This document shows, piece after piece, positions 11,581-54,491 of a stretch of DNA of 64,000 nt; position 1 is the first letter of the stretch, and the number at the start of each line of letters is the position of its first letter. A program made the translations under genes and the position numbers. The notes under the pieces were generated by a model. That model was not told the DNA's origin and ran no database searches. It saw only the letters and a list, made by a program, of their open reading frames with translations. This stretch comes from a phage, in the sequence record PZ386955.1; one strand, written 5' to 3'.

Positions 11581-13191
11581 ATGAAATACACGATTTATGG
11601 TGATATTGTAAGTGTAAATAAAGATATGGGCGTGGAATCTAACTATCTTCCACCTGGATTCTATACTGTTAGTCGTGATCCCCTTGGCAATTATTTTTTA
11701 AGCCGTGGTAATCTAACAGGTGTACCGGATGTTCTGTATGGTGAAACAGAAAAACGAGCAAATCACGTTATCCGTACATTCCATCGCCGGAGTGCACAAG
11801 GTAAAAATACAGGCTTGCTTCTGACAGGAACTAAGGGTAGTGGTAAAACTATGTTAGCCAAACTCATTAGTCGTGATCTTGTAGAAGAAGGTATTCCAAC
11901 TATTATGGTTACTCAAGCCTACAGTGATGCTAATTTCATTGAACTTATTAGCAAGATCACCGACAAAGCAGTGATTATTTTTGACGAGTTTGATAAAGTA
12001 TATGAGAAGAAACAAGATCAAGAAGCACTTCTCACTTTGTTAGATGGTACTGGCAGTGGTAATAAACTGTTTATTCTAACTAAAAACAGTGGCTTTATCT
12101 CTGAATTCTTTCTAAATCGTCCTAGTCGTGTGTTTTATAATTTTAATTATGATAAAATCTCACTAGAAACTATGATTGACTATTTAGATAAAAACCTGGA
12201 TAACAAAGCACACTTTGATAATTTCCAAAGACTTTGGGATGTAAGTTTAGAGTTGTCCTTTGATGTGATCCAAGGTATAGTAGAAGAACTTAATTTCTAC
12301 CCTGATTTATCCTTTAAAGAATGCATCTCTATGATGGGCGTTTCTTTGGGTGGTGGTAATAAATGGGATACTACAAGTATTAACAATTTTAAACGTGGTA
12401 GCGGTTGTCCACAATGTAAGAGGGAGAGACAAACAATGTCCGACGATCAACATATTGCAGATTTCTTTTCTACAGGGGAATTTAAGGAAGGCACTATCTT
12501 CACCAATACAGGGAAACGTAACAAGCGTGATGCAGTATGGATGGTTGAGTGTCCTGTTTGCTCCCATGATGAATATGTTCAAGCAGGTGTTTGTGATGGT
12601 AAATTTTACTCTGCAGGACATAACCTTAAACAAGGGTATATTCCGTGTCGTTGTGGGAACTATCAGTATACAGAAGACCAGATCACCTATAGGGTAAAAA
12701 AGGAAGTAGAAGGGAAAGGGTATGTCTGGGTAGATTGGATTACCAAACCCTCTTCTATAGGTAAGTTTAAATATCTTTGTCTTGTGCATGGTGAGCAGAT
12801 AGGGAGTGCTCGTAATTTATTAAGCCTCGGTCAAGGTTGTCCACAGTGTGCTGGTCATAATCAACAGCAATTATATATTAATATTGTTAAAGATAATGAT
12901 ATTATAGTTGCTCTTAAGTTTGGTATATCTAAAGATAGCGATAGACGATTAAACGGTCAAAATAGCCGTAATCTGTTTTTTATGGAGCGTATTTGTTTAT
13001 ATGATTTTAGCACAGTGAAACAATGTAGGGCTGCTGAAAGAGCTATAAAGAAAAAATTAAAAACTGGTATTTTAACGGCAAGAGAGTTGAAAGATGGTTA
13101 TACAGAAACAGTAAGTGTTTCTGATTTGGAAAATCTTCAAAAAATTATTACACAATATGGTGGCAAATTAGTATACAGTAAGGAGATGTAA
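11581..13191 (+). CDS. AAA-type P-loop ATPase fused to Zn-ribbon repeats and a GIY-YIG-like (T5orf172-like) C-terminal domain
   Basis: Walker A GTKGSGKT, Walker B IIFDEFD; three Cys motifs (GCPQC, CPVC..C, GCPQC); C-terminus YINIVKD..KFGIS..RRL..GYTE resembles GIY-YIG family (tentative). Confidence 0.6.
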   Translation: MKYTIYGDIVSVNKDMGVESNYLPPGFYTVSRDPLGNYFLSRGNLTGVPDVLYGETEKRANHVIRTFHRRSAQGKNTGLLLTGTKGSGKTMLAKLISRDLVEEGIPTIMVTQAYSDANFIELISKITDKAVIIFDEFDKVYEKKQDQEALLTLLDGTGSGNKLFILTKNSGFISEFFLNRPSRVFYNFNYDKISLETMIDYLDKNLDNKAHFDNFQRLWDVSLELSFDVIQGIVEELNFYPDLSFKECISMMGVSLGGGNKWDTTSINNFKRGSGCPQCKRERQTMSDDQHIADFFSTGEFKEGTIFTNTGKRNKRDAVWMVECPVCSHDEYVQAGVCDGKFYSAGHNLKQGYIPCRCGNYQYTEDQITYRVKKEVEGKGYVWVDWITKPSSIGKFKYLCLVHGEQIGSARNLLSLGQGCPQCAGHNQQQLYINIVKDNDIIVALKFGISKDSDRRLNGQNSRNLFFMERICLYDFSTVKQCRAAERAIKKKLKTGILTARELKDGYTETVSVSDLENLQKIITQYGGKLVYSKEM

Positions 13192-47196: not shown

Positions 47197-47859
47197 TTAT
47201 TTAATATTCAATTTTGCACAAAGACGTTGTACCGCTTTGGCATCGAACAAACTCCCACGAATAGTTCTCTTTCCTGATTCATTCAGATGCTTTGCAATCG
47301 TCATATATGGCGTTTTACAAGCTCTGTATGCAACTAAAGAATCTTTTAAAGAAAGCGCAAACTCTTTTGAGCGTTTTGCTTCTTCCGTTTTCGTATAATC
47401 TGTTCTTTTGTATTTAGGGTTTGCTGCACCAAGAAGCGTTCCCTTCGCTTTTGCTACTTTAAGGCTCTTCTTAACACGATCAGATATTGCACGAGCCTCT
47501 TCTTCTGCCAGAACTGCTAAAATATTTATTATCATATTTTCAGCGGAGGGCATAGTTGCTATTCGTACATTAATCATCTCTAACAAGGTTGCAACAGAAG
47601 CTGTGTTACGTCCAAGACGGTCAACCTTAGCAACAACAAGTGTAGCACCTGTTTCTTTGCAAAGATTAACAGCTTTCACAAGCTCTCTACGTTGCTTCCA
47701 ATCGCCTTTACCCGAATAAAACTCTGCAAAGCTACCTACAATAGTATAATTTTCTTGTGAATCCAGGAAGCGTTGGATATCTGCTTCCTGTGATTCTATA
47801 CCATACTGGTTGCCTTGTTGTTTCTTCTTAGAAAGTCGATGATATAGTACAAACTTCAT
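47197..47859 (-). CDS. serine recombinase (resolvase/invertase family)
   Basis: N-terminal YHRLSKKKQQ..GIESQ catalytic-Ser region, VVAKVDRLGRN, C-terminal HTH-like tail. Confidence 0.7.
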   Translation of the reverse strand: MKFVLYHRLSKKKQQGNQYGIESQEADIQRFLDSQENYTIVGSFAEFYSGKGDWKQRRELVKAVNLCKETGATLVVAKVDRLGRNTASVATLLEMINVRIATMPSAENMIINILAVLAEEEARAISDRVKKSLKVAKAKGTLLGAANPKYKRTDYTKTEEAKRSKEFALSLKDSLVAYRACKTPYMTIAKHLNESGKRTIRGSLFDAKAVQRLCAKLNIK

Positions 47860-48371: not shown

Positions 48372-48873
48372 AATAGAAAGGTTGAGTTAAACCCAGCCTG
48401 TTTTTTGGGTCGTAGACGTACCAAGCATATGCTGTCTTATCAGTACCACCTGCAACAAAAGATGGTCGTTCAGAAAGAACAATCAAATTTGTTGGTGGAT
48501 TCTGTTTATGGAATTCCCTTCGTTTAATAGACTCTAGGAACCCAAGACGCAACAAGTATATGCAAACGTCTGCTTCTTTTAAGCTCTTTTGCAAGAACTC
48601 AAGTGCAAGTTTGAATGGGGGATTTGTGATTATAATATCCGGCTTAGTATGCCATTCGTGGTTAAAATAATCTTTCCCTTCTTCTAACTCACAATATTCT
48701 GATCCTTCTGGAAAATGTTGATAAATTGCAGCAGCAGCGCCTTTACACGGTTCTGCAAAAATAAAACCTTCTTCTTTAAGGTTATTAAAATCTATTACAC
48801 TAAATAATGCATTTATACATTTTTGTGGAGTAGGATAGTAATCAGTTGGTGGACGATCATACTTATTTACCAC
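48364..48873 (-). CDS. DNA N6-adenine methyltransferase (phage Dam-like)
   Basis: NPPF catalytic motif (IIITNPPFKLA), small single-domain size. Confidence 0.65.
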   Translation of the reverse strand: MVNKYDRPPTDYYPTPQKCINALFSVIDFNNLKEEGFIFAEPCKGAAAAIYQHFPEGSEYCELEEGKDYFNHEWHTKPDIIITNPPFKLALEFLQKSLKEADVCIYLLRLGFLESIKRREFHKQNPPTNLIVLSERPSFVAGGTDKTAYAWYVYDPKNRLGLTQPFYFV

Positions 48874-49291
48874 TACTTAAAATCTCCTCTTTTGTGATTT
48901 CAGGGTCTTCTTCAAAAACCATAATATCTCTTAAGAACGTTAATTCTTCCATAGATACTGGTATTGTATCTTCTTCTGTTTTTCGTTTACATAAATCGTC
49001 AAGAAAGTTTTTAAAGTTTTCTGACAAATCGTAAAATTTCAACAGTTGATAATCACAGGAGGAGATCCTATCTAGTTCTAACATTCTTTCTAAGATATTT
49101 TCTGTGTTGCCATACAGCACACGAACTTCTCCGAAAGGGTTGACTGAATATTGTGAAGTTCTGAACCATCCCTTTTTAGATACAGTGTAACGCTGTTCTG
49201 CTAAACTTTCAATAAAATTTTTAGCTCTTTTACAGTTTTGTTCTAAAGAGTAGTAGGCTTTTTCTACAAAGGTTACAGGTACTGGTAACAT
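48863..49291 (-). CDS. hypothetical protein
   Basis: 142 aa ORF. Confidence 0.55.
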   Translation of the reverse strand: MLPVPVTFVEKAYYSLEQNCKRAKNFIESLAEQRYTVSKKGWFRTSQYSVNPFGEVRVLYGNTENILERMLELDRISSCDYQLLKFYDLSENFKNFLDDLCKRKTEEDTIPVSMEELTFLRDIMVFEEDPEITKEEILSSGK

Positions 49292-49331
49292 ATCTCCTCC
49301 TAATAACCCCCTTGCTGGGGTTTATACTAGA

Positions 49332-49985
49332 TTAATTATCAGAGGACACTTTATCAAGTTTTTCAGAGACTGTCAATACTTTTTCTTGTGATTCTTTCAT
49401 TTCTGCTAAAATACTTTCAGCTTCATCACTATCAGGATCACCAGTCAACAGCATACTAATCAGTTGCTCCTTGCTGAAGTTCAGAATATCTTCCGCTGTT
49501 AACTCCAGTTGTTCTTCGATCTCTTCGATAAAAGTTTCACCGCCTGAAAAAGCATCTCGTAGTTTTGCAACTTCCATCGCTTCTTCTGGAGTTGCCCCAG
49601 CGTCTAAAGCTGCTAAAGCAAAATCTGCCCCACTACCAACAGCATAGTAGTCTTCAGTTAAAGGATATGCTCGCGTTGGATTATTACCCTCGTGCATATA
49701 AATTTTACCGTCTGGGTGAACAACCAATGCCACAAACTCTTCATCTTCTTTGTCAGGATCTGACTGGATCACCAAACCTGGGATTGTCTCTTGTGCTGCT
49801 TGGCATTGTAAATTTTGTTCGAACCAAGAAAAGAAAGTCAGGATAGAAGATAGACGTCCTGCACCACCAACGAGGTAGTCCCCAATTTTACGCACTTTCT
49901 TGAAATTTAAAGTGTCTACACGACTACCTACTGTTACCTTACCGTCAGACAGAATTTTGTTACGTGTTGCAATAATTGTTGTCAT
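49332..49985 (-). CDS. HslV/proteasome-beta-like N-terminal-nucleophile peptidase with acidic C-terminal extension
   Basis: N-terminus MTTIIATRN (Thr nucleophile), FKKVRKIG, VGSGADFALAA resemble HslV. Confidence 0.65.
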   Translation of the reverse strand: MTTIIATRNKILSDGKVTVGSRVDTLNFKKVRKIGDYLVGGAGRLSSILTFFSWFEQNLQCQAAQETIPGLVIQSDPDKEDEEFVALVVHPDGKIYMHEGNNPTRAYPLTEDYYAVGSGADFALAALDAGATPEEAMEVAKLRDAFSGGETFIEEIEEQLELTAEDILNFSKEQLISMLLTGDPDSDEAESILAEMKESQEKVLTVSEKLDKVSSDN

Positions 49986-50476
49986 TATACTTCCTCCTGT
50001 AGTGTTTTAAGGACTGCTTTACCACCGCTTACATATTTACGGAGGTAGTCAATAGCTCTTAGTGTTTCTTTATCCACAAGAATTTTATTAGTTCTTGTTA
50101 GTGGATGATTTAGTAAATCACTGCAATTTCTTACTAACATAGATTTCTTGTGAAAAATACTACTAAGAAAAAGAAGTTTAGAATCTTCTTCATCAATCAG
50201 GAGTAACTCTGAATTAGACCCAGCTACATTTATTATACACTCAAACAAGCCTTCTTGACTATCAGATAATTCCTGGTAATATTTAGTTAGCCAATCCTCT
50301 CCTTTCAACCAACTAAAAAACATCTGAACTTTTTGCAAAGTTGTCATGTTCTCTAAACGAAGAGATATTTCTTTTTCAATCTTGTCAATATAAATCTGTC
50401 TAAACTCATTCGGCTTAACTAAGCCAGCTTGATAGCATTCATCAATACCATTGCGATCAATCTCAATTAGCGTCAT
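49985..50476 (-). CDS. hypothetical protein (coupled upstream of HslV-like gene)
   Basis: 163 aa, ATGA overlap. Confidence 0.55.
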   Translation of the reverse strand: MTLIEIDRNGIDECYQAGLVKPNEFRQIYIDKIEKEISLRLENMTTLQKVQMFFSWLKGEDWLTKYYQELSDSQEGLFECIINVAGSNSELLLIDEEDSKLLFLSSIFHKKSMLVRNCSDLLNHPLTRTNKILVDKETLRAIDYLRKYVSGGKAVLKTLQEEV

Positions 50477-50512
50477 TTAACCTCCATAACAGGCATCCTT
50501 GCCTTGTAATTA

Positions 50513-51265
50513 TTAATATACTTCCGTGATGAACTGAGACAAACGGGAACGTTGGTTATCAGCAGTTGTCATTTCAACATAACCAATAAAATCCACAATA
50601 GCTTCCCTTTCTCCTTCTTCATTAATAGGAACAACACGATCTAACAAATCACCTAAACCGTTAGCTCTTCGTTTAATTGCATATGTTTGATTAACATCAC
50701 CCATAATGACAATACGTGTATTAAGACCTGCTCGCTCAAGGAGAAGTTTTATTGTATTTGGTGACATAAGTTGAACTTCATCAATAAGAATAATGCTGTT
50801 ATCCCACGTAGCACCTAGTGCATAGTTTGGAATATTAAGTTCAATTTTGCCACTTGCAATATCGTTTTCCAATTTATTTGCAGTCATAAACTGTTGGAAA
50901 ATTCTTTTAGTTGATTCGTAGTGTGCTGCTAGTTTATCAGTCTTATCTCCAGATAAGAAACCAATTTGATCATCACCTACTTCTGTCGGGTTTTTAAGGA
51001 AAATCAACTTTCTGAAATCACCAGCTTTAAGCATTTGCAATGCTTTCCACAATGCTGTTGTCGTTTTTCCTGTTCCTGCTGGGGCATTAACAATGGTTAA
51101 ATCATTCCAAACCATGCTTCTTACAATAGCTTCTTGATTCCCAACAGGGGTAAATTCATCAAGACGGTAATCATCATTTCCTACTGCTTTAGCCGCATAA
51201 CGACTGGCACGTTTGTCATCATTGGCTGCTGATTGACGACGAGCCTTTGCGGTTTTGTTTCCCAT
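50513..51265 (-). CDS. phoH: PhoH-like ATPase
   Basis: Walker A NAPAGTGKTT and PhoH-like core. Confidence 0.8.
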   Translation of the reverse strand: MGNKTAKARRQSAANDDKRASRYAAKAVGNDDYRLDEFTPVGNQEAIVRSMVWNDLTIVNAPAGTGKTTTALWKALQMLKAGDFRKLIFLKNPTEVGDDQIGFLSGDKTDKLAAHYESTKRIFQQFMTANKLENDIASGKIELNIPNYALGATWDNSIILIDEVQLMSPNTIKLLLERAGLNTRIVIMGDVNQTYAIKRRANGLGDLLDRVVPINEEGEREAIVDFIGYVEMTTADNQRSRLSQFITEVY

Positions 51266-51280
51266 GTTTGCACTCCTTAT

Positions 51281-51303
51281 AAAAGGGGCTTTCGCCCCTT
51301 TGT
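51281..51303 (-). terminator. rho-independent terminator after lysozyme gene
   Basis: Minus strand GGGGCGAAAGCCCC followed by TTTTAT. Confidence 0.6.
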
Positions 51304-51964: not shown

Positions 51965-52231
51965 TTACTCCGCAATCTGAGCCATGAATTCACGTAGTTC
52001 GGAAAAACCTCCTACGTGGGTTAGATGTTCACCATCTTCCACAAAAATTTGAGGAAAGGTACGTGGCAGAACACCTGTTTTCTCTAAAACCAGATTCTGA
52101 ATCTGATCTAAAGAATAGTCTTCATCTAAGGTAAGATATTTAAAATCCTGTTCACGCTGTTCCAGTAGAATCTTAGCGTTAGTGCAGAAAGGACAATTTG
52201 GTTTACCGTAGATAATAAAATTCATTTTCAC
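51965..52231 (-). CDS. glutaredoxin (NrdC/NrdH-like)
   Basis: CPFC active site in YGKPNCPFCTNAK, ~88 aa. Confidence 0.8.
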   Translation of the reverse strand: MKMNFIIYGKPNCPFCTNAKILLEQREQDFKYLTLDEDYSLDQIQNLVLEKTGVLPRTFPQIFVEDGEHLTHVGGFSELREFMAQIAE

Positions 52232-53058
52232 TCCTTGTTTAAAAGTATAGTTAAAGTTTTTACAATACCGCTATCAACACTTCGCGGATTTAAAGTAGGA
52301 TCTGTTTTTAAATAAGATGTTGCTGGTCTGACTGCTTTGGAATTATAGGTTGAAGCAGATACAGGATTAACTGTAACAGACAAATCTATAACAAGAAATA
52401 TCTTTCGTGCAAAATCGTACCAAGAAATATAATCTGCACCTGCATAGTGTACAATTTTACTATTTACACCATCTTTTACAAGTTTAAAAATTGTTTCTGC
52501 AAGATCAGGTGCATAAGTAGGACACGACAAATGATCACATACTACATTAAATTCTTTTTGACCACCATTGTAGCGTTCCAACATAGTTTTCAAAAAGTTA
52601 TGTCCAAATTCACTATAAACAGAAGCTGTTCTGATAATAAGTGCTGTAGGACAAACTGCTTGTACTAAAGTTTCACCTAATTGTTTACTGTAACCGTAGG
52701 TGTTCAAGGGGTTTGTTTTACTCTCTTCTGTGCCAGCAACATGTCCATCAAAAACATAGTCTGTTGAAATATGTACAAACTGTATCAGTAAATCATTACA
52801 TGCTTTGGCAATGTTTGTTGCACCGTATGCATTAACATTTATACAGGTGTTAACATCTTCTTCAGCTTTATCTACTGCCGTGTAAGCCGCACAATTCACA
52901 ACAACATCAGGCACATGCTGTACAAGACTATTCATAACATCTTTAAAGTTGGTAATGTCTACATCACTTGCTTCAATCAAAATAACATCTTCGGGCGCAA
53001 CTTTTGCCAAAGACTGTCCTAATTGACCTTTTGAACCAAAGACTAAAAATTTTGTCAA
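52228..53058 (-). CDS. rmlD: dTDP-4-dehydrorhamnose reductase
   Basis: N-terminal Rossmann LVFGSKGQLGQSL, RmlD-like length and pathway context. Confidence 0.75.
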   Translation of the reverse strand: MTKFLVFGSKGQLGQSLAKVAPEDVILIEASDVDITNFKDVMNSLVQHVPDVVVNCAAYTAVDKAEEDVNTCINVNAYGATNIAKACNDLLIQFVHISTDYVFDGHVAGTEESKTNPLNTYGYSKQLGETLVQAVCPTALIIRTASVYSEFGHNFLKTMLERYNGGQKEFNVVCDHLSCPTYAPDLAETIFKLVKDGVNSKIVHYAGADYISWYDFARKIFLVIDLSVTVNPVSASTYNSKAVRPATSYLKTDPTLNPRSVDSGIVKTLTILLNKE

Positions 53059-53609
53059 AATATGATCTCCTTTAGTGTTTTGGCTTCCTGATCTTTTTGT
53101 GACAAGATAGGTTTAAAATTAATATCATTAAAGATTAAATCAAAACCCCAATCTATATTGATATCTGGATCATTCCACGCAAGACTACACTCTGAAGTCG
53201 GATCGTAATATTCTGTACATTTGTATTCAAAATCAGCAATATCACTAATCACAACAAAGCCATGAGCGAAACCAGGAGGAATCCAAAATTGTGTTTTATT
53301 CTTTTCAGATAAGAGAACACCTACCCATTCTCCAAATGTTGGACTACCAACCCTAATATCTACAGCAACATCATAAACTTCACCACGAACACAACGTACT
53401 AACTTCCCTTGTGGGTTTTTCTTTTGAAAATGAAGCCCACGTAGAACTCCTCGGATAGAACGTGAATGGTTATCTTGGACAAAGTTTTGTTTACCTATGT
53501 ATTGATCATATAAAGCCTGATTAAAACTTTCTAAGAAAAAGCCACGTTCATCTCCGTAAACGTCAGGTTGAATGATCAACAAATCTTCGATTTTTGTTGC
53601 TTGAATCAT
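53055..53609 (-). CDS. rmlC: dTDP-4-dehydrorhamnose 3,5-epimerase
   Basis: DERGFFLESF and RGLHFQ motifs, ~184 aa cupin. Confidence 0.8.
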   Translation of the reverse strand: MIQATKIEDLLIIQPDVYGDERGFFLESFNQALYDQYIGKQNFVQDNHSRSIRGVLRGLHFQKKNPQGKLVRCVRGEVYDVAVDIRVGSPTFGEWVGVLLSEKNKTQFWIPPGFAHGFVVISDIADFEYKCTEYYDPTSECSLAWNDPDINIDWGFDLIFNDINFKPILSQKDQEAKTLKEIIF

Positions 53610-53621
53610 TTAATTCCCCCT

Positions 53622-54491
53622 TTATTTTAATTTAAGTAAATACTTACCGTAGTCTGTTTTACTTAAAACCTCTCCAGAACTTTTTACAGAGTCTAAAGTA
53701 ATCCATTCATTTTTAAAAGCAATCTCTTCCAGGCAAGCAACCTTCATACCTTGTTGCTTTTCTATTGCATGAACAAATTGAGATGCTTCCATAAGACTTT
53801 CATGTGTTCCTGTATCCAGCCAAGTGAAACCTCTTCCTAGCTTACAGACACGTAAAGCCTTTTCTTTCCAGTACATCTCATTTATATCTGTGATCTCTAA
53901 CTCCCCTCTAGCAGAAGGCTTAACGCTTTTAGCTTTCTGTATAACAGAATTATCGTAAAAGTACAAGCCTGTAATTGCATAGTTGCTTTTTGGTGCTTTT
54001 GGTTTTTCTTCAATACTTACCACTGTACCTTCAGAATCAAACTCAACAACACCAAATCTTTCAGGATCATTTACGTGATACCCAAAAATATTAGCTCCAC
54101 CATTCTTTTCAATATGTTCTTTAGCAGAATCTAAAATGCTACCAAAACTCTGACCAAAGAATAAATTATCACCTAGCACAAGTGCTACAGAATCTTCACC
54201 AATAAAGTTCTCACCAATAATAAACGCTTCTGCTAAACCTTTTGGGCTATCCTGTATTGCATACTGTAGGGAAATACCAAAAGAAGAACCGTCACCTAGA
54301 AGATTTACAAAATTAATTTGATCTTCTGGTGTTGTAATTATTAGTATTTCCCTAATTCCAGAAAGCATTAGGACAGAGAGTGGATAATAAATCATAGGTT
54401 TATCGTAAATTGGTAATAGTTGTTTACTAACCCCTTTAGTAACTGGGTAAAGTCTTGTTCCACTACCACCTGCTAAGATAATACCTTTCAT
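53622..54491 (-). CDS. rmlA: glucose-1-phosphate thymidylyltransferase
   Basis: [36 protein letters not shown] matches RmlA N-terminus. Confidence 0.9.

Follow-up and report, generated by a model that had tools for sequence, protein, structure and literature searches.

What does a bacteriophage gain from a proteasome-like peptidase, and what is served by the acidic tail that such a peptidase carries at its C-terminus? The question is posed by gp058, a protein of 217 amino acids (ATG start, MTTIIATRNK...) encoded on the minus strand at 49332..49985 of a 64,000-nucleotide stretch of phage DNA (sequence record PZ386955.1, referred to here as the window). The window is that of a phi92-like Justusliebigvirus coliphage, with nucleotide identity of 98.5-99% to phi92 and its relatives; the reading frame starting MTTIIATRN that a first-pass annotation described is present, while the framing of that annotation in terms of T4 core genes is inapplicable to a phage that is phi92-like and not T4-like. 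Its core claim, a phage-encoded proteasome-like protease, is not new: the gene is already annotated in dozens of GenBank records as 'peptidase HslV family', 'putative 20S proteasome' or 'nucleophile aminohydrolase', many records label it an ATP-dependent protease subunit, and phage-borne proteasome homologs were catalogued in 2021 by Fuchs, Alva and Lupas (PMC8665760). Here we report that the tail of the gp058 family recurs, in the same genomic slot, on proteases of the ClpP fold, and that in one pair of phages the catalytic domains have been exchanged in situ beneath a retained tail. We put at roughly 0.5 the probability that gp058 is an active, accessory peptidase of the PPH/RPC type with an N-terminal threonine and that its tail docks a partner irrespective of protease fold.

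The catalytic core, residues 1-155 (49521..49985, minus strand), was delimited from invariant alignment columns, structural alignment to HslV and the secondary structure of a model. gp058 is 100% identical to cluster P0001 (50 member sequences), matches PHROG 1040 at E 1e-61 and has homologs in 167 phage records and in about 2,000 cluster representatives at E<1e-10. The Pfam Proteasome model (PF00227) scores 25.1 bits on gp058 itself, above its gathering threshold of 22.4, and is a precomputed match on most of the close homologs. An AlphaFold model (20 homologs) has a mean predicted local distance difference test (pLDDT) score of 83.6, with most of the core above 90, and Foldseek relates it, at a probability of 1.0 (E 1e-9 to 1e-7), to HslV, to BPH and to 20S beta subunits of archaea and eukaryotes; by sequence, HslV chains are its best matches in the PDB (E 5e-8 to 1e-5). 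T2, D14, K30, G41, G43, G117-S118-G119 and G149 do not vary among homologs of 44-100% identity, and R143, D144, S147 and G148 hardly do (at least 90% conserved), the last four forming with G149 a C-terminal core motif, R143-D144-x-x-S147-G148-G149, that resembles 20S beta rather than HslV. T2, D14 and K30 align on Thr1, Asp17 and Lys33 of HslV; throughout the family there is little or no variation at the positions that correspond to Asp17, Lys33, the glycine loop, Ser129, Asp166 and Ser169. In the model one long helix (45-67) gives way to a coil of 17 residues, and there is no helix H2; the core is itself acidic (net -10).

The N-terminus deserves particular attention, as the predicted nucleophile, Thr-2 (codon 49980..49982, minus strand), directly follows the initiator methionine, as in E. 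coli HslV (MTTIV). Since 131 of 150 family representatives start with MTT, the N-terminal assignment is secure. The reading frame contains no earlier in-frame start codon, and an AGGAGG ribosome-binding site, read from the sequence at 49993..49998 (minus strand) and annotated in the same place in phi92, lies 7 nt from the ATG, inside the 3' end of the upstream gene gp059. The first-pass annotation had proposed a proteasome- or HslV-like N-terminal nucleophile (Ntn) peptidase with a threonine nucleophile and a GSG motif, and all of this holds, the motif lying at residues 117-119. By predicted fold gp058 is a proteasome-like Ntn hydrolase; its active site is intact, and activity is predicted.

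Residues 156-217 form the C-terminal tail (49332..49520 with the stop codon, minus strand). That the tail is acidic had been noted before and is borne out (17 D/E against 5 K/R, net -12), although it comprises 62 residues and not about 50. An acidic linker leads into two short helices, LTAEDILNFSKEQLISMLLTG (L162-G182; 49440..49502, minus strand), and these are followed by a variable remainder; the helices are modelled at a pLDDT of 71-79 and the last 17 residues at 53-56. The helical segment corresponds to a motif with the consensus LTxEDxxxFSKEQLLxxLL, in which L175 of gp058 is nearly invariant across homologs. Among 64 cluster representatives with long tails (at least 25 residues), 39 contain the strict form [ST]K[KEQDR][EQD][LIVM][LIVMF] about 16 residues past the last core strand, against 0.3 +/- 0.5 when the tails are shuffled, and the motif is still present in proteins whose core identity is only 30-40%. 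Long tails are net negative in 95% of cases (median -14), and about 2,000 short-form relatives have no tail at all. Longer relatives carry an extra distal module, ending ...LGVxYAHNIGxxxLxxKLxxKVKEIVDSLN, that is absent from gp058. The tail may conceivably be a SAP/HeH/Rho_N DNA-binding motif, but the only Pfam matches of this kind are sub-threshold (Rho_N 15 bits, Ish1 17 bits) and fall, in certain long forms, within the distal module. Conservation of the tail motif is not among the findings of the literature that we searched.

Phages that encode PhoH and lack a gp058 homolog served as controls. In these phages a ClpP-family protease with a C-terminal extension occupies the gp058 slot: the Pfam CLP_protease model scores 45 bits on ICP1 gp211, 31.8 on gp235 of the rV5-like phage KaOmega and about 49 on the proteins of PWH3a-P1 (VPIG_00091) and IBT_VpB-34. 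With the tail of the proteasome-type protein of phage 10AMN as sole query, tblastn over 2.3 Gb found PWH3a-P1 (45.5% identity over 95% of the tail, E 1e-15) and IBT_VpB-34 (E 1e-12), and BLASTP gave E 3e-26 for IBT_VpB-34 and 4e-7 for ICP1. The proximal motifs read IYTKEDLEDKSKEEILAMLFGEE in the ClpP-type and LYSKEDFEDKSKEEILAMLFGEE in the proteasome-type proteins. A hidden Markov model (HMM) built exclusively from proximal tails of proteasome-type proteins placed ClpP-type proteins at the top of 2,644 open reading frames (ORFs; E 1.3e-9 and 2e-7), and the same HMM recognises residues 154-195 of gp058 at E 8e-5. A tail-only profile search of 5.8 billion proteins, which is too insensitive at that scale, returned four hits, all proteasome-type.

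The comparison of 10AMN with IBT_VpB-34 is the most direct. Nucleotide identity between the two is 87% through two upstream genes up to the start codon of the protease; the catalytic domains show none, and precisely at the start of the tail motif it resumes, at 89%. Read from the alignment, this is an in-situ exchange of catalytic domains under a retained tail. By comparison with E. coli ClpP, the Vibrio ClpP-type proteins retain the complete Ser-His-Asp triad. gp058 itself cannot be taken for a ClpP (peptidase S14), as it has no CLP_protease match in Pfam and shares with the phage ClpP-type proteins only tail and slot. The PhoH genes of the pair (L071:5899-6690 in 10AMN, L075:2899-3690 in IBT_VpB-34) encode proteins of just 23% identity beside genes, immediately downstream, that are 79-92% identical, so PhoH too has been exchanged between subtypes at this locus. 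Portability of a tail between proteasome-type and ClpP-type proteases at one locus is absent from the literature that we searched.

These observations lead to the following proposal. Host methionine aminopeptidase would remove Met-1 and expose Thr-2 as the nucleophile, which would act together with D14, K30 and the glycine loop, all present in gp058, in the manner of HslV and 20S beta. By analogy with the family, the subunits would assemble into a ring-shaped degradation chamber, and the synteny with ICP1 suggests that expression from the DNA/nucleotide-metabolism block probably falls in mid-infection. The 62-residue acidic tail would project from the particle, and its two-helix motif, L162-G182, would dock or tether a partner that reads the tail and not the body of the protease. 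Since the same tail sits on a ClpP-fold domain in the same slot, selection appears to act on a proteolytic chamber attached to this tail: displacement of the catalytic domain argues both that plain chambered proteolysis is what is selected, to the detriment of ligase or decoy readings, and that the tail carries a specific function. The best candidates for the partner come from the same block, which encodes the PhoH-like ATPase and, just upstream of gp058, the small helical protein gp059.

Several points weigh against this proposal. The gp058 tail holds the proximal motif only and connects to the ClpP-type tails transitively, by way of the family profile; compared pairwise, the tails of gp058 and ICP1 are not significantly similar (E 0.3). 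The ICP1 tail is itself significant only over its full length (E ~1 at the level of the motif), and that of the rV5-like phage KaOmega has no detectable homology at motif level. The tail could serve regulation, as a gate or an autoinhibitor, and not docking. In the absence of helix H2 the ring might form differently or not at all, a point that Fuchs et al. (PMC8665760) raise for divergent homologs. Finally, our literature searches found no expression timing for phi92-like phages and no experimental paper on any member of the gp058 family.

The gp058 gene overlaps gp059 (49985..50476, minus strand; 163 residues), which is followed upstream by a PhoH-like P-loop ATPase (50513..51265, minus strand; 250 residues, phi92 gp060; Pfam PF02562, 123.7 bits). 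The overlapping upstream ORF of the first-pass annotation is real and conserved, but the overlap is here a single base, read TAATG (TAA 49987-49985, ATG 49985-49983), rather than ATGA; the phi92 record gives 4 nt. PhoH, which had been placed next to the peptidase gene, is indeed nearby and adjoins gp059, the upstream ORF. The order lysozyme-PhoH-gp059-gp058-gp057-methyltransferase is kept in L001-L021, and PhoH stays linked to the peptidase where gp058 identity falls to 41-51% (L022-L024). In L001-L021, L023-L024 and L044 the gene immediately upstream of gp058 is gp059; in L022 a weak 26% match stands about 2 kb upstream of the peptidase gene. Counting lineages clustered at 55% identity and using a PhoH profile, PhoH is found near the peptidase in all nine close lineages, at 69 bp to 3.4 kb (eight by profile and one, Aeromonas phage 2L372D, by an annotated PhoH 2.7 kb upstream), and within 5-10 kb in none of nine distant or short-form lineages. 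In L040 it lies downstream of the peptidase. The genes between the two vary: gp059, AP2, HNH or LAGLIDADG endonuclease-like genes, none (Shewanella 1/40), or five (Aeromonas), one of the five encoding a second proteasome homolog. The four ClpP-type protease genes examined also follow PhoH, 0.7-1.4 kb downstream of it, and the annotation of Alteromonas phage V22 has PhoH and a Clp protease as consecutive coding sequences. The slot, lysozyme-PhoH-(small genes)-protease, recurs in phi92-like, phAPEC8-like, Klebsiella, Shewanella, Vibrio, Aeromonas, ICP1 and rV5-like phages within a larger syntenic block of ribonucleotide reductase, glutaredoxin, lysozyme, PhoH, protease and ligase or methyltransferase. 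Much of the linkage is synteny inherited with this block, and as evidence for a functional link it is suggestive and not conclusive. Lineage-wide linkage to PhoH is not in the literature that we searched, and the rV5 and O177 phage papers state nothing on these genes.

The first-pass annotation took gp059 for a possible regulator or substrate of the peptidase. The protein has 34 homolog clusters, is confined to nearer relatives and is modelled as an all-alpha protein (pLDDT 94), with no informative fold or family match in Pfam, PHROG or structure searches beyond PHROG 14834. Because of FFSW and SGG look-alikes we considered whether it might be a diverged, inactive paralog of gp058, and rejected this (BLASTP E 0.11, hhalign probability 0.1%, all-alpha model). 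Genes of about 150 codons upstream of the protease in Vibrio and rV5-like phages have no detectable homology to it; only that of Klebsiella FBKp34 matches. On the other side of gp058 its 3' neighbour gp057 (48863..49291, minus strand; 142 residues, PHROG 15078) ends ...FEEDPEITKEEILSSGK, in which EDPEITKEEIL resembles the start of the gp058 tail motif, and orthologs of 44-51% identity keep a C-terminal EDPx(L/I)TKEE(I/L)L. Proteins of 64-65 residues encoded between PhoH and the protease in Vibrio phages end YSKEELFKKLI. We suggest tentatively, from these resemblances, that the C-termini of gp057 and of the small Vibrio proteins may share a short docking peptide with the tail motif.

A natural deletion bears on whether these genes are needed. 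The VEcB record NC_052663 lacks 1,121 bp (49801..50921 of the window) between 9-bp direct repeats, TGTGCTGCT, which removes the C-terminal half of PhoH, all of gp059 and residues 1-62 of gp058, and with them both active sites. What remains is an in-frame PhoH(1-113)-gp058(63-217) chimera, annotated 'peptidase HslV family' (P0043), which we considered and dismissed as a natural PhoH-peptidase fusion, as it is a deletion product without either active site. The locus is intact in a second VEcB assembly, OZ035773. Since NC_052663 lost it in a single deletion, the PhoH-gp059-gp058 module is accessory and dispensable for plaque formation. This three-gene deletion is not described in the literature that we searched.

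How the tailed peptidase is used can be read in several ways. The tail might dock the peptidase, of either fold, onto the PhoH-like ATPase to form a machine for nucleotide-dependent degradation, perhaps of RNA- or DNA-protein substrates, a scheme that we hold to be rather unlikely. The contrast between nine of nine close and none of nine distant or short-form lineages is what such a machine would predict; the linkage outlasts the L040 rearrangement and the insertion of homing endonuclease genes, it extends to the four ClpP-type loci and, tail aside, to the consecutive genes annotated in V22, and the VEcB deletion struck PhoH, gp059 and gp058 together. PhoH domains are moreover paired elsewhere with hydrolases such as PIN RNases, although PhoH-family ATPases are described as RNA helicases and not as unfoldases (PMC7824862). 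Against it, the whole block is syntenic among related myoviruses, so that adjacency may be inherited, and an in-situ domain swap keeps position automatically; PhoH subtypes and protease types are also mixed, the 10AMN and IBT_VpB-34 PhoH proteins sharing 23% identity between flanks of 87% nucleotide identity. An electrostatic match between the acidic tail and a basic N-terminal extension of PhoH was rejected as not specific, since CRW-SP2 PhoH has the same extension with no protease found within about 6 kb on either side. Adjacency alone cannot separate PhoH function from ancestry, and PhoH is the most interesting partner candidate. Somewhat less probable again, to our minds, is a stand-alone, ATP-independent peptidase of the BPH/Anbu kind, for which no ATPase is known; it would break down peptides or unfolded proteins so as to recycle amino acids, and its tail would only gate, regulate or solubilise it. 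The conserved block has no AAA+ unfoldase, and the distribution of the phage's two AAA ATPases does not follow that of the tailed proteases. In the V22 genome paper the gene stands under 'protein catabolism', short-form relatives numbering about 2,000 do without a tail, and VEcB does without the gene; a generic role of this kind leaves unexplained both a 20-residue motif at a fixed offset across very distant lineages and a tail kept at 89% nucleotide identity while the catalytic fold above it was replaced.

Fold-independent exchange under a kept tail is also the expectation for a targeting signal, and an auxiliary protease directed to the procapsid by its acidic helical tail, for which any compact protease fold would serve, is a further reading, to which we give a lower weight still. 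Scaffold-like C-terminal regions target some prohead proteases in this way, protease-scaffold fusions are known in phages (P2 gpO is an example), and the ClpP-type counterparts also hit families that PHROG names 'head maturation protease' (E 1e-30 to 1e-12). Yet in phi92-like phages a canonical Peptidase_S78_2 gene already sits between those for portal and major capsid protein, whereas gp058 lies in the DNA-metabolism strand block, far from the structural genes, and VEcB plaques without it. In ICP1, similarly, the capsid protease gp125 is separate, encoded in the capsid operon, and the gp176-gp211 range, which holds the ClpP-type gene, includes nucleotide-metabolism genes that peak at 12 min, the late structural genes peaking at 16 min (PMC7567579). 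We consider it improbable that gp058 is a genuine HslV orthologue that hijacks host HslU or ClpX to form a hybrid ATP-dependent protease, even though its MTTII start mimics the MTTIV of E. coli HslV, its best PDB matches are HslV and many records name it an ATP-dependent protease subunit. The NCBIfam HslV equivalogs score far below their cutoffs (NF003964, 34 bits against 137; TIGR03692, 31.6 against 157.75). Helix H2, which in proteasomes occupies the side in contact with the adjacent ring or activator, is missing, and the RDxxSGG motif is closer to 20S beta than to HslV. The relatives infect hosts from Vibrio to Shewanella, and ClpP, with its different docking rules, can replace the catalytic domain. 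Nor is an hslU-like gene found beside gp058, where the neighbours are gp059, PhoH, gp057 and the methyltransferase, or an HslU-like product annotated in phi92 1-50 kb; the assignment to the HslV family proper made in the first-pass annotation is accordingly not upheld. The least probable reading, and one we regard as very improbable, is that gp058 is no protease at all but an inactive scaffold or decoy, or an enzyme of other Ntn chemistry such as a connectase-like ligase that acts on one particular protein, for instance gp059. A ligase, connectase, is among the characterised divergent proteasome homologs, so that the family name does not imply proteolysis (PMC8665760). All catalytic residues of gp058 are strongly conserved, however, the S3/S4 helical insertion specific to connectase is absent from its model, and replacement by a ClpP fold with an intact Ser-His-Asp triad indicates that plain hydrolysis is selected. 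Our preferred reading remains an active peptidase, dispensable to the phage, whose tail would dock a partner whatever the protease fold.

The locus has further features. The minus strand carries every gene from 47 to 54 kb of the window. A G+C-rich hairpin followed by TTTT, found by hairpin scan and by reading the sequence, lies between the lysozyme gene and PhoH (51282..51301, minus strand) and is a possible terminator at the start of the PhoH-gp059-gp058 unit; the record of Klebsiella FBKp34 has a promoter annotated at the equivalent position. A second G+C-rich hairpin, without a T-run, follows the gp058 stop codon (49305-49322). The flanks include, in a lytic phage, a serine recombinase/DNA invertase gene (47197-47859, minus strand) and a dTDP-rhamnose biosynthesis cluster (52228-54491, minus strand). 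Four records named 'Campylobacter phage' (A150, A145, C3 and A110a; MG065639, MG065645, MG065656 and MG065689) have 98.5% identity to phi92-like coliphages here, and their host label is probably wrong or reflects contamination. In Vibrio and marine phages, homing-endonuclease-like genes (AP2-domain/HNH, LAGLIDADG) lie repeatedly between PhoH and the protease (L026:9278-9988, L043:4720-5835, L071:6770-7849, L070:6696-7328). Aeromonas phage 2L372D has two adjacent proteasome-like genes (L004:2432-3885), for a protein of 183 residues (MTCIIAL) and a 294-residue long form with the tail motif, a pairing that hints at hetero-oligomers in some phages. A 227-kb, jumbo-phage-sized IMG/VR contig carries three tandem divergent proteasome-like ORFs (L037:10001-11954; 231, 181 and 226 residues) in which Pfam finds nothing.

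Other proteases and ATPases of these phages were also considered. The gene beside the capsid genes was identified in phage muut, which has no protease annotated in its head module: muut gp003 (L078:2398-2877, 159 residues), between the portal and major capsid genes, is of the Peptidase_S78_2/XkdF type (44 bits against a cutoff of 24), and its RefSeq/PHROG-derived name, 'DNA methyltransferase', appears to be wrong. phi92-like phages encode two paralogous classical AAA ATPases, 47% identical (L076:17663-18790 and L076:34498-35658), both of which match PF00004 and not a Clp/HslU-type model; a copy in the window lies at about 11581-12381 on the plus strand, where only residues 1-267 align. We rejected them as unfoldase partners, the family occurring in many unrelated large phages and not tracking the tailed proteases. 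The first-pass annotation also held that the protease could target host defence or regulatory proteins; in a check for a defence or anti-defence link PADLOC gave no hit for gp057, gp058 or gp059, and there is evidence neither in favour of such targeting nor against it.

Were the tail a portable adaptor that plugs any self-compartmentalising protease into a PhoH-centred phage machine, which strikes us as doubtful, the result would be a new class of nucleotide-dependent degradation complex, with the docking element on the protease and not on the ATPase, and a function for the long-enigmatic phage PhoH, which is among the most widespread 'auxiliary' phage genes and equally unexplained. The exchange of proteasome and ClpP folds under one tail at one locus suggests that here either chambered protease can do the work of the other, and it singles out the 20-residue motif as a bait element. 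A partner that proved to be PhoH or a host factor would show how these large myoviruses use targeted proteolysis in infection. What is gained is a directly testable handle on two poorly understood phage gene families, and not a new class of system.

Among known systems, gp058 is a better fit to the PPH/RPC-type proteasome homologs of phages than to HslV proper. PPH proteins (representative WP_042125023.1) are compact, of about 140 residues, lack helix H2, belong to group I and occur in tailed phages and prophages, and RPC proteins (representative WP_140207863) are PPH-related with a C-terminal extension (PMC8665760). A profile search of 1.84 billion representatives with gp058 returned 57 clusters at E<1e-30, almost all of 180-350 residues, and about 2,000 at E<1e-10, mostly of 140-150 residues, grading continuously into proteins of PPH size (about 140-150 residues, E 1e-19 to 1e-26). 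Because of this grading by size we place gp058, on profile similarity, in a long-tailed sub-clade of a PPH-like radiation. Like PPH, it is phage-borne, with a beta-sandwich core, the Thr1/Asp17/Lys33 residues, neither propeptide nor H2, and no experimental function; it differs from the compact PPH in its 155-residue core with a conserved 62-residue acidic tail and in belonging to the 180-350-residue sub-clade that is linked to PhoH. With RPC it shares a PPH-like core without H2 followed by a C-terminal region that matches no known structure. RPC, however, is reported from proteobacterial genomes only (Table 1 of PMC8665760), whereas the close clade of gp058 came from the genomes of phages and from contigs of viral or metagenomic origin, including IMG/VR loci; scans of bacterial genomes and metagenomes yielded mostly short forms, and a single scan of bacterial genomes found only the short form, in Pectobacterium.

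HslV (ClpQ) has the same fold, the same MTT N-terminus and the same Thr/Asp/Lys/Gly/Ser active-site residues, but is only 22-28% identical to gp058, which lacks H2 and an hslU partner gene and has a tail and the RDxxSGG motif. BPH/Anbu is alike in fold (BPH is among the top Foldseek matches), in having no unfoldase gene nearby and in its poorly understood function, and unlike in possessing both helices, a long acidic pore loop in place of an acidic C-terminal tail, and a different gene context (PMC8665760). The phage ClpP-like 'ATP-dependent proteases' (PHROG 1827 / 5410) share with gp058 the slot downstream of PhoH, a similar total length and a C-terminal extension, and those of Vibrio phages share with the proteasome-type proteins a homologous tail, with its proximal SKEEIL motif and distal ...KVKEIVDSLN module. 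Their Ser-His-Asp ClpP fold sets them apart from an enzyme with an N-terminal threonine, and the relationship is one of functional analogy, reached by displacement of a domain.

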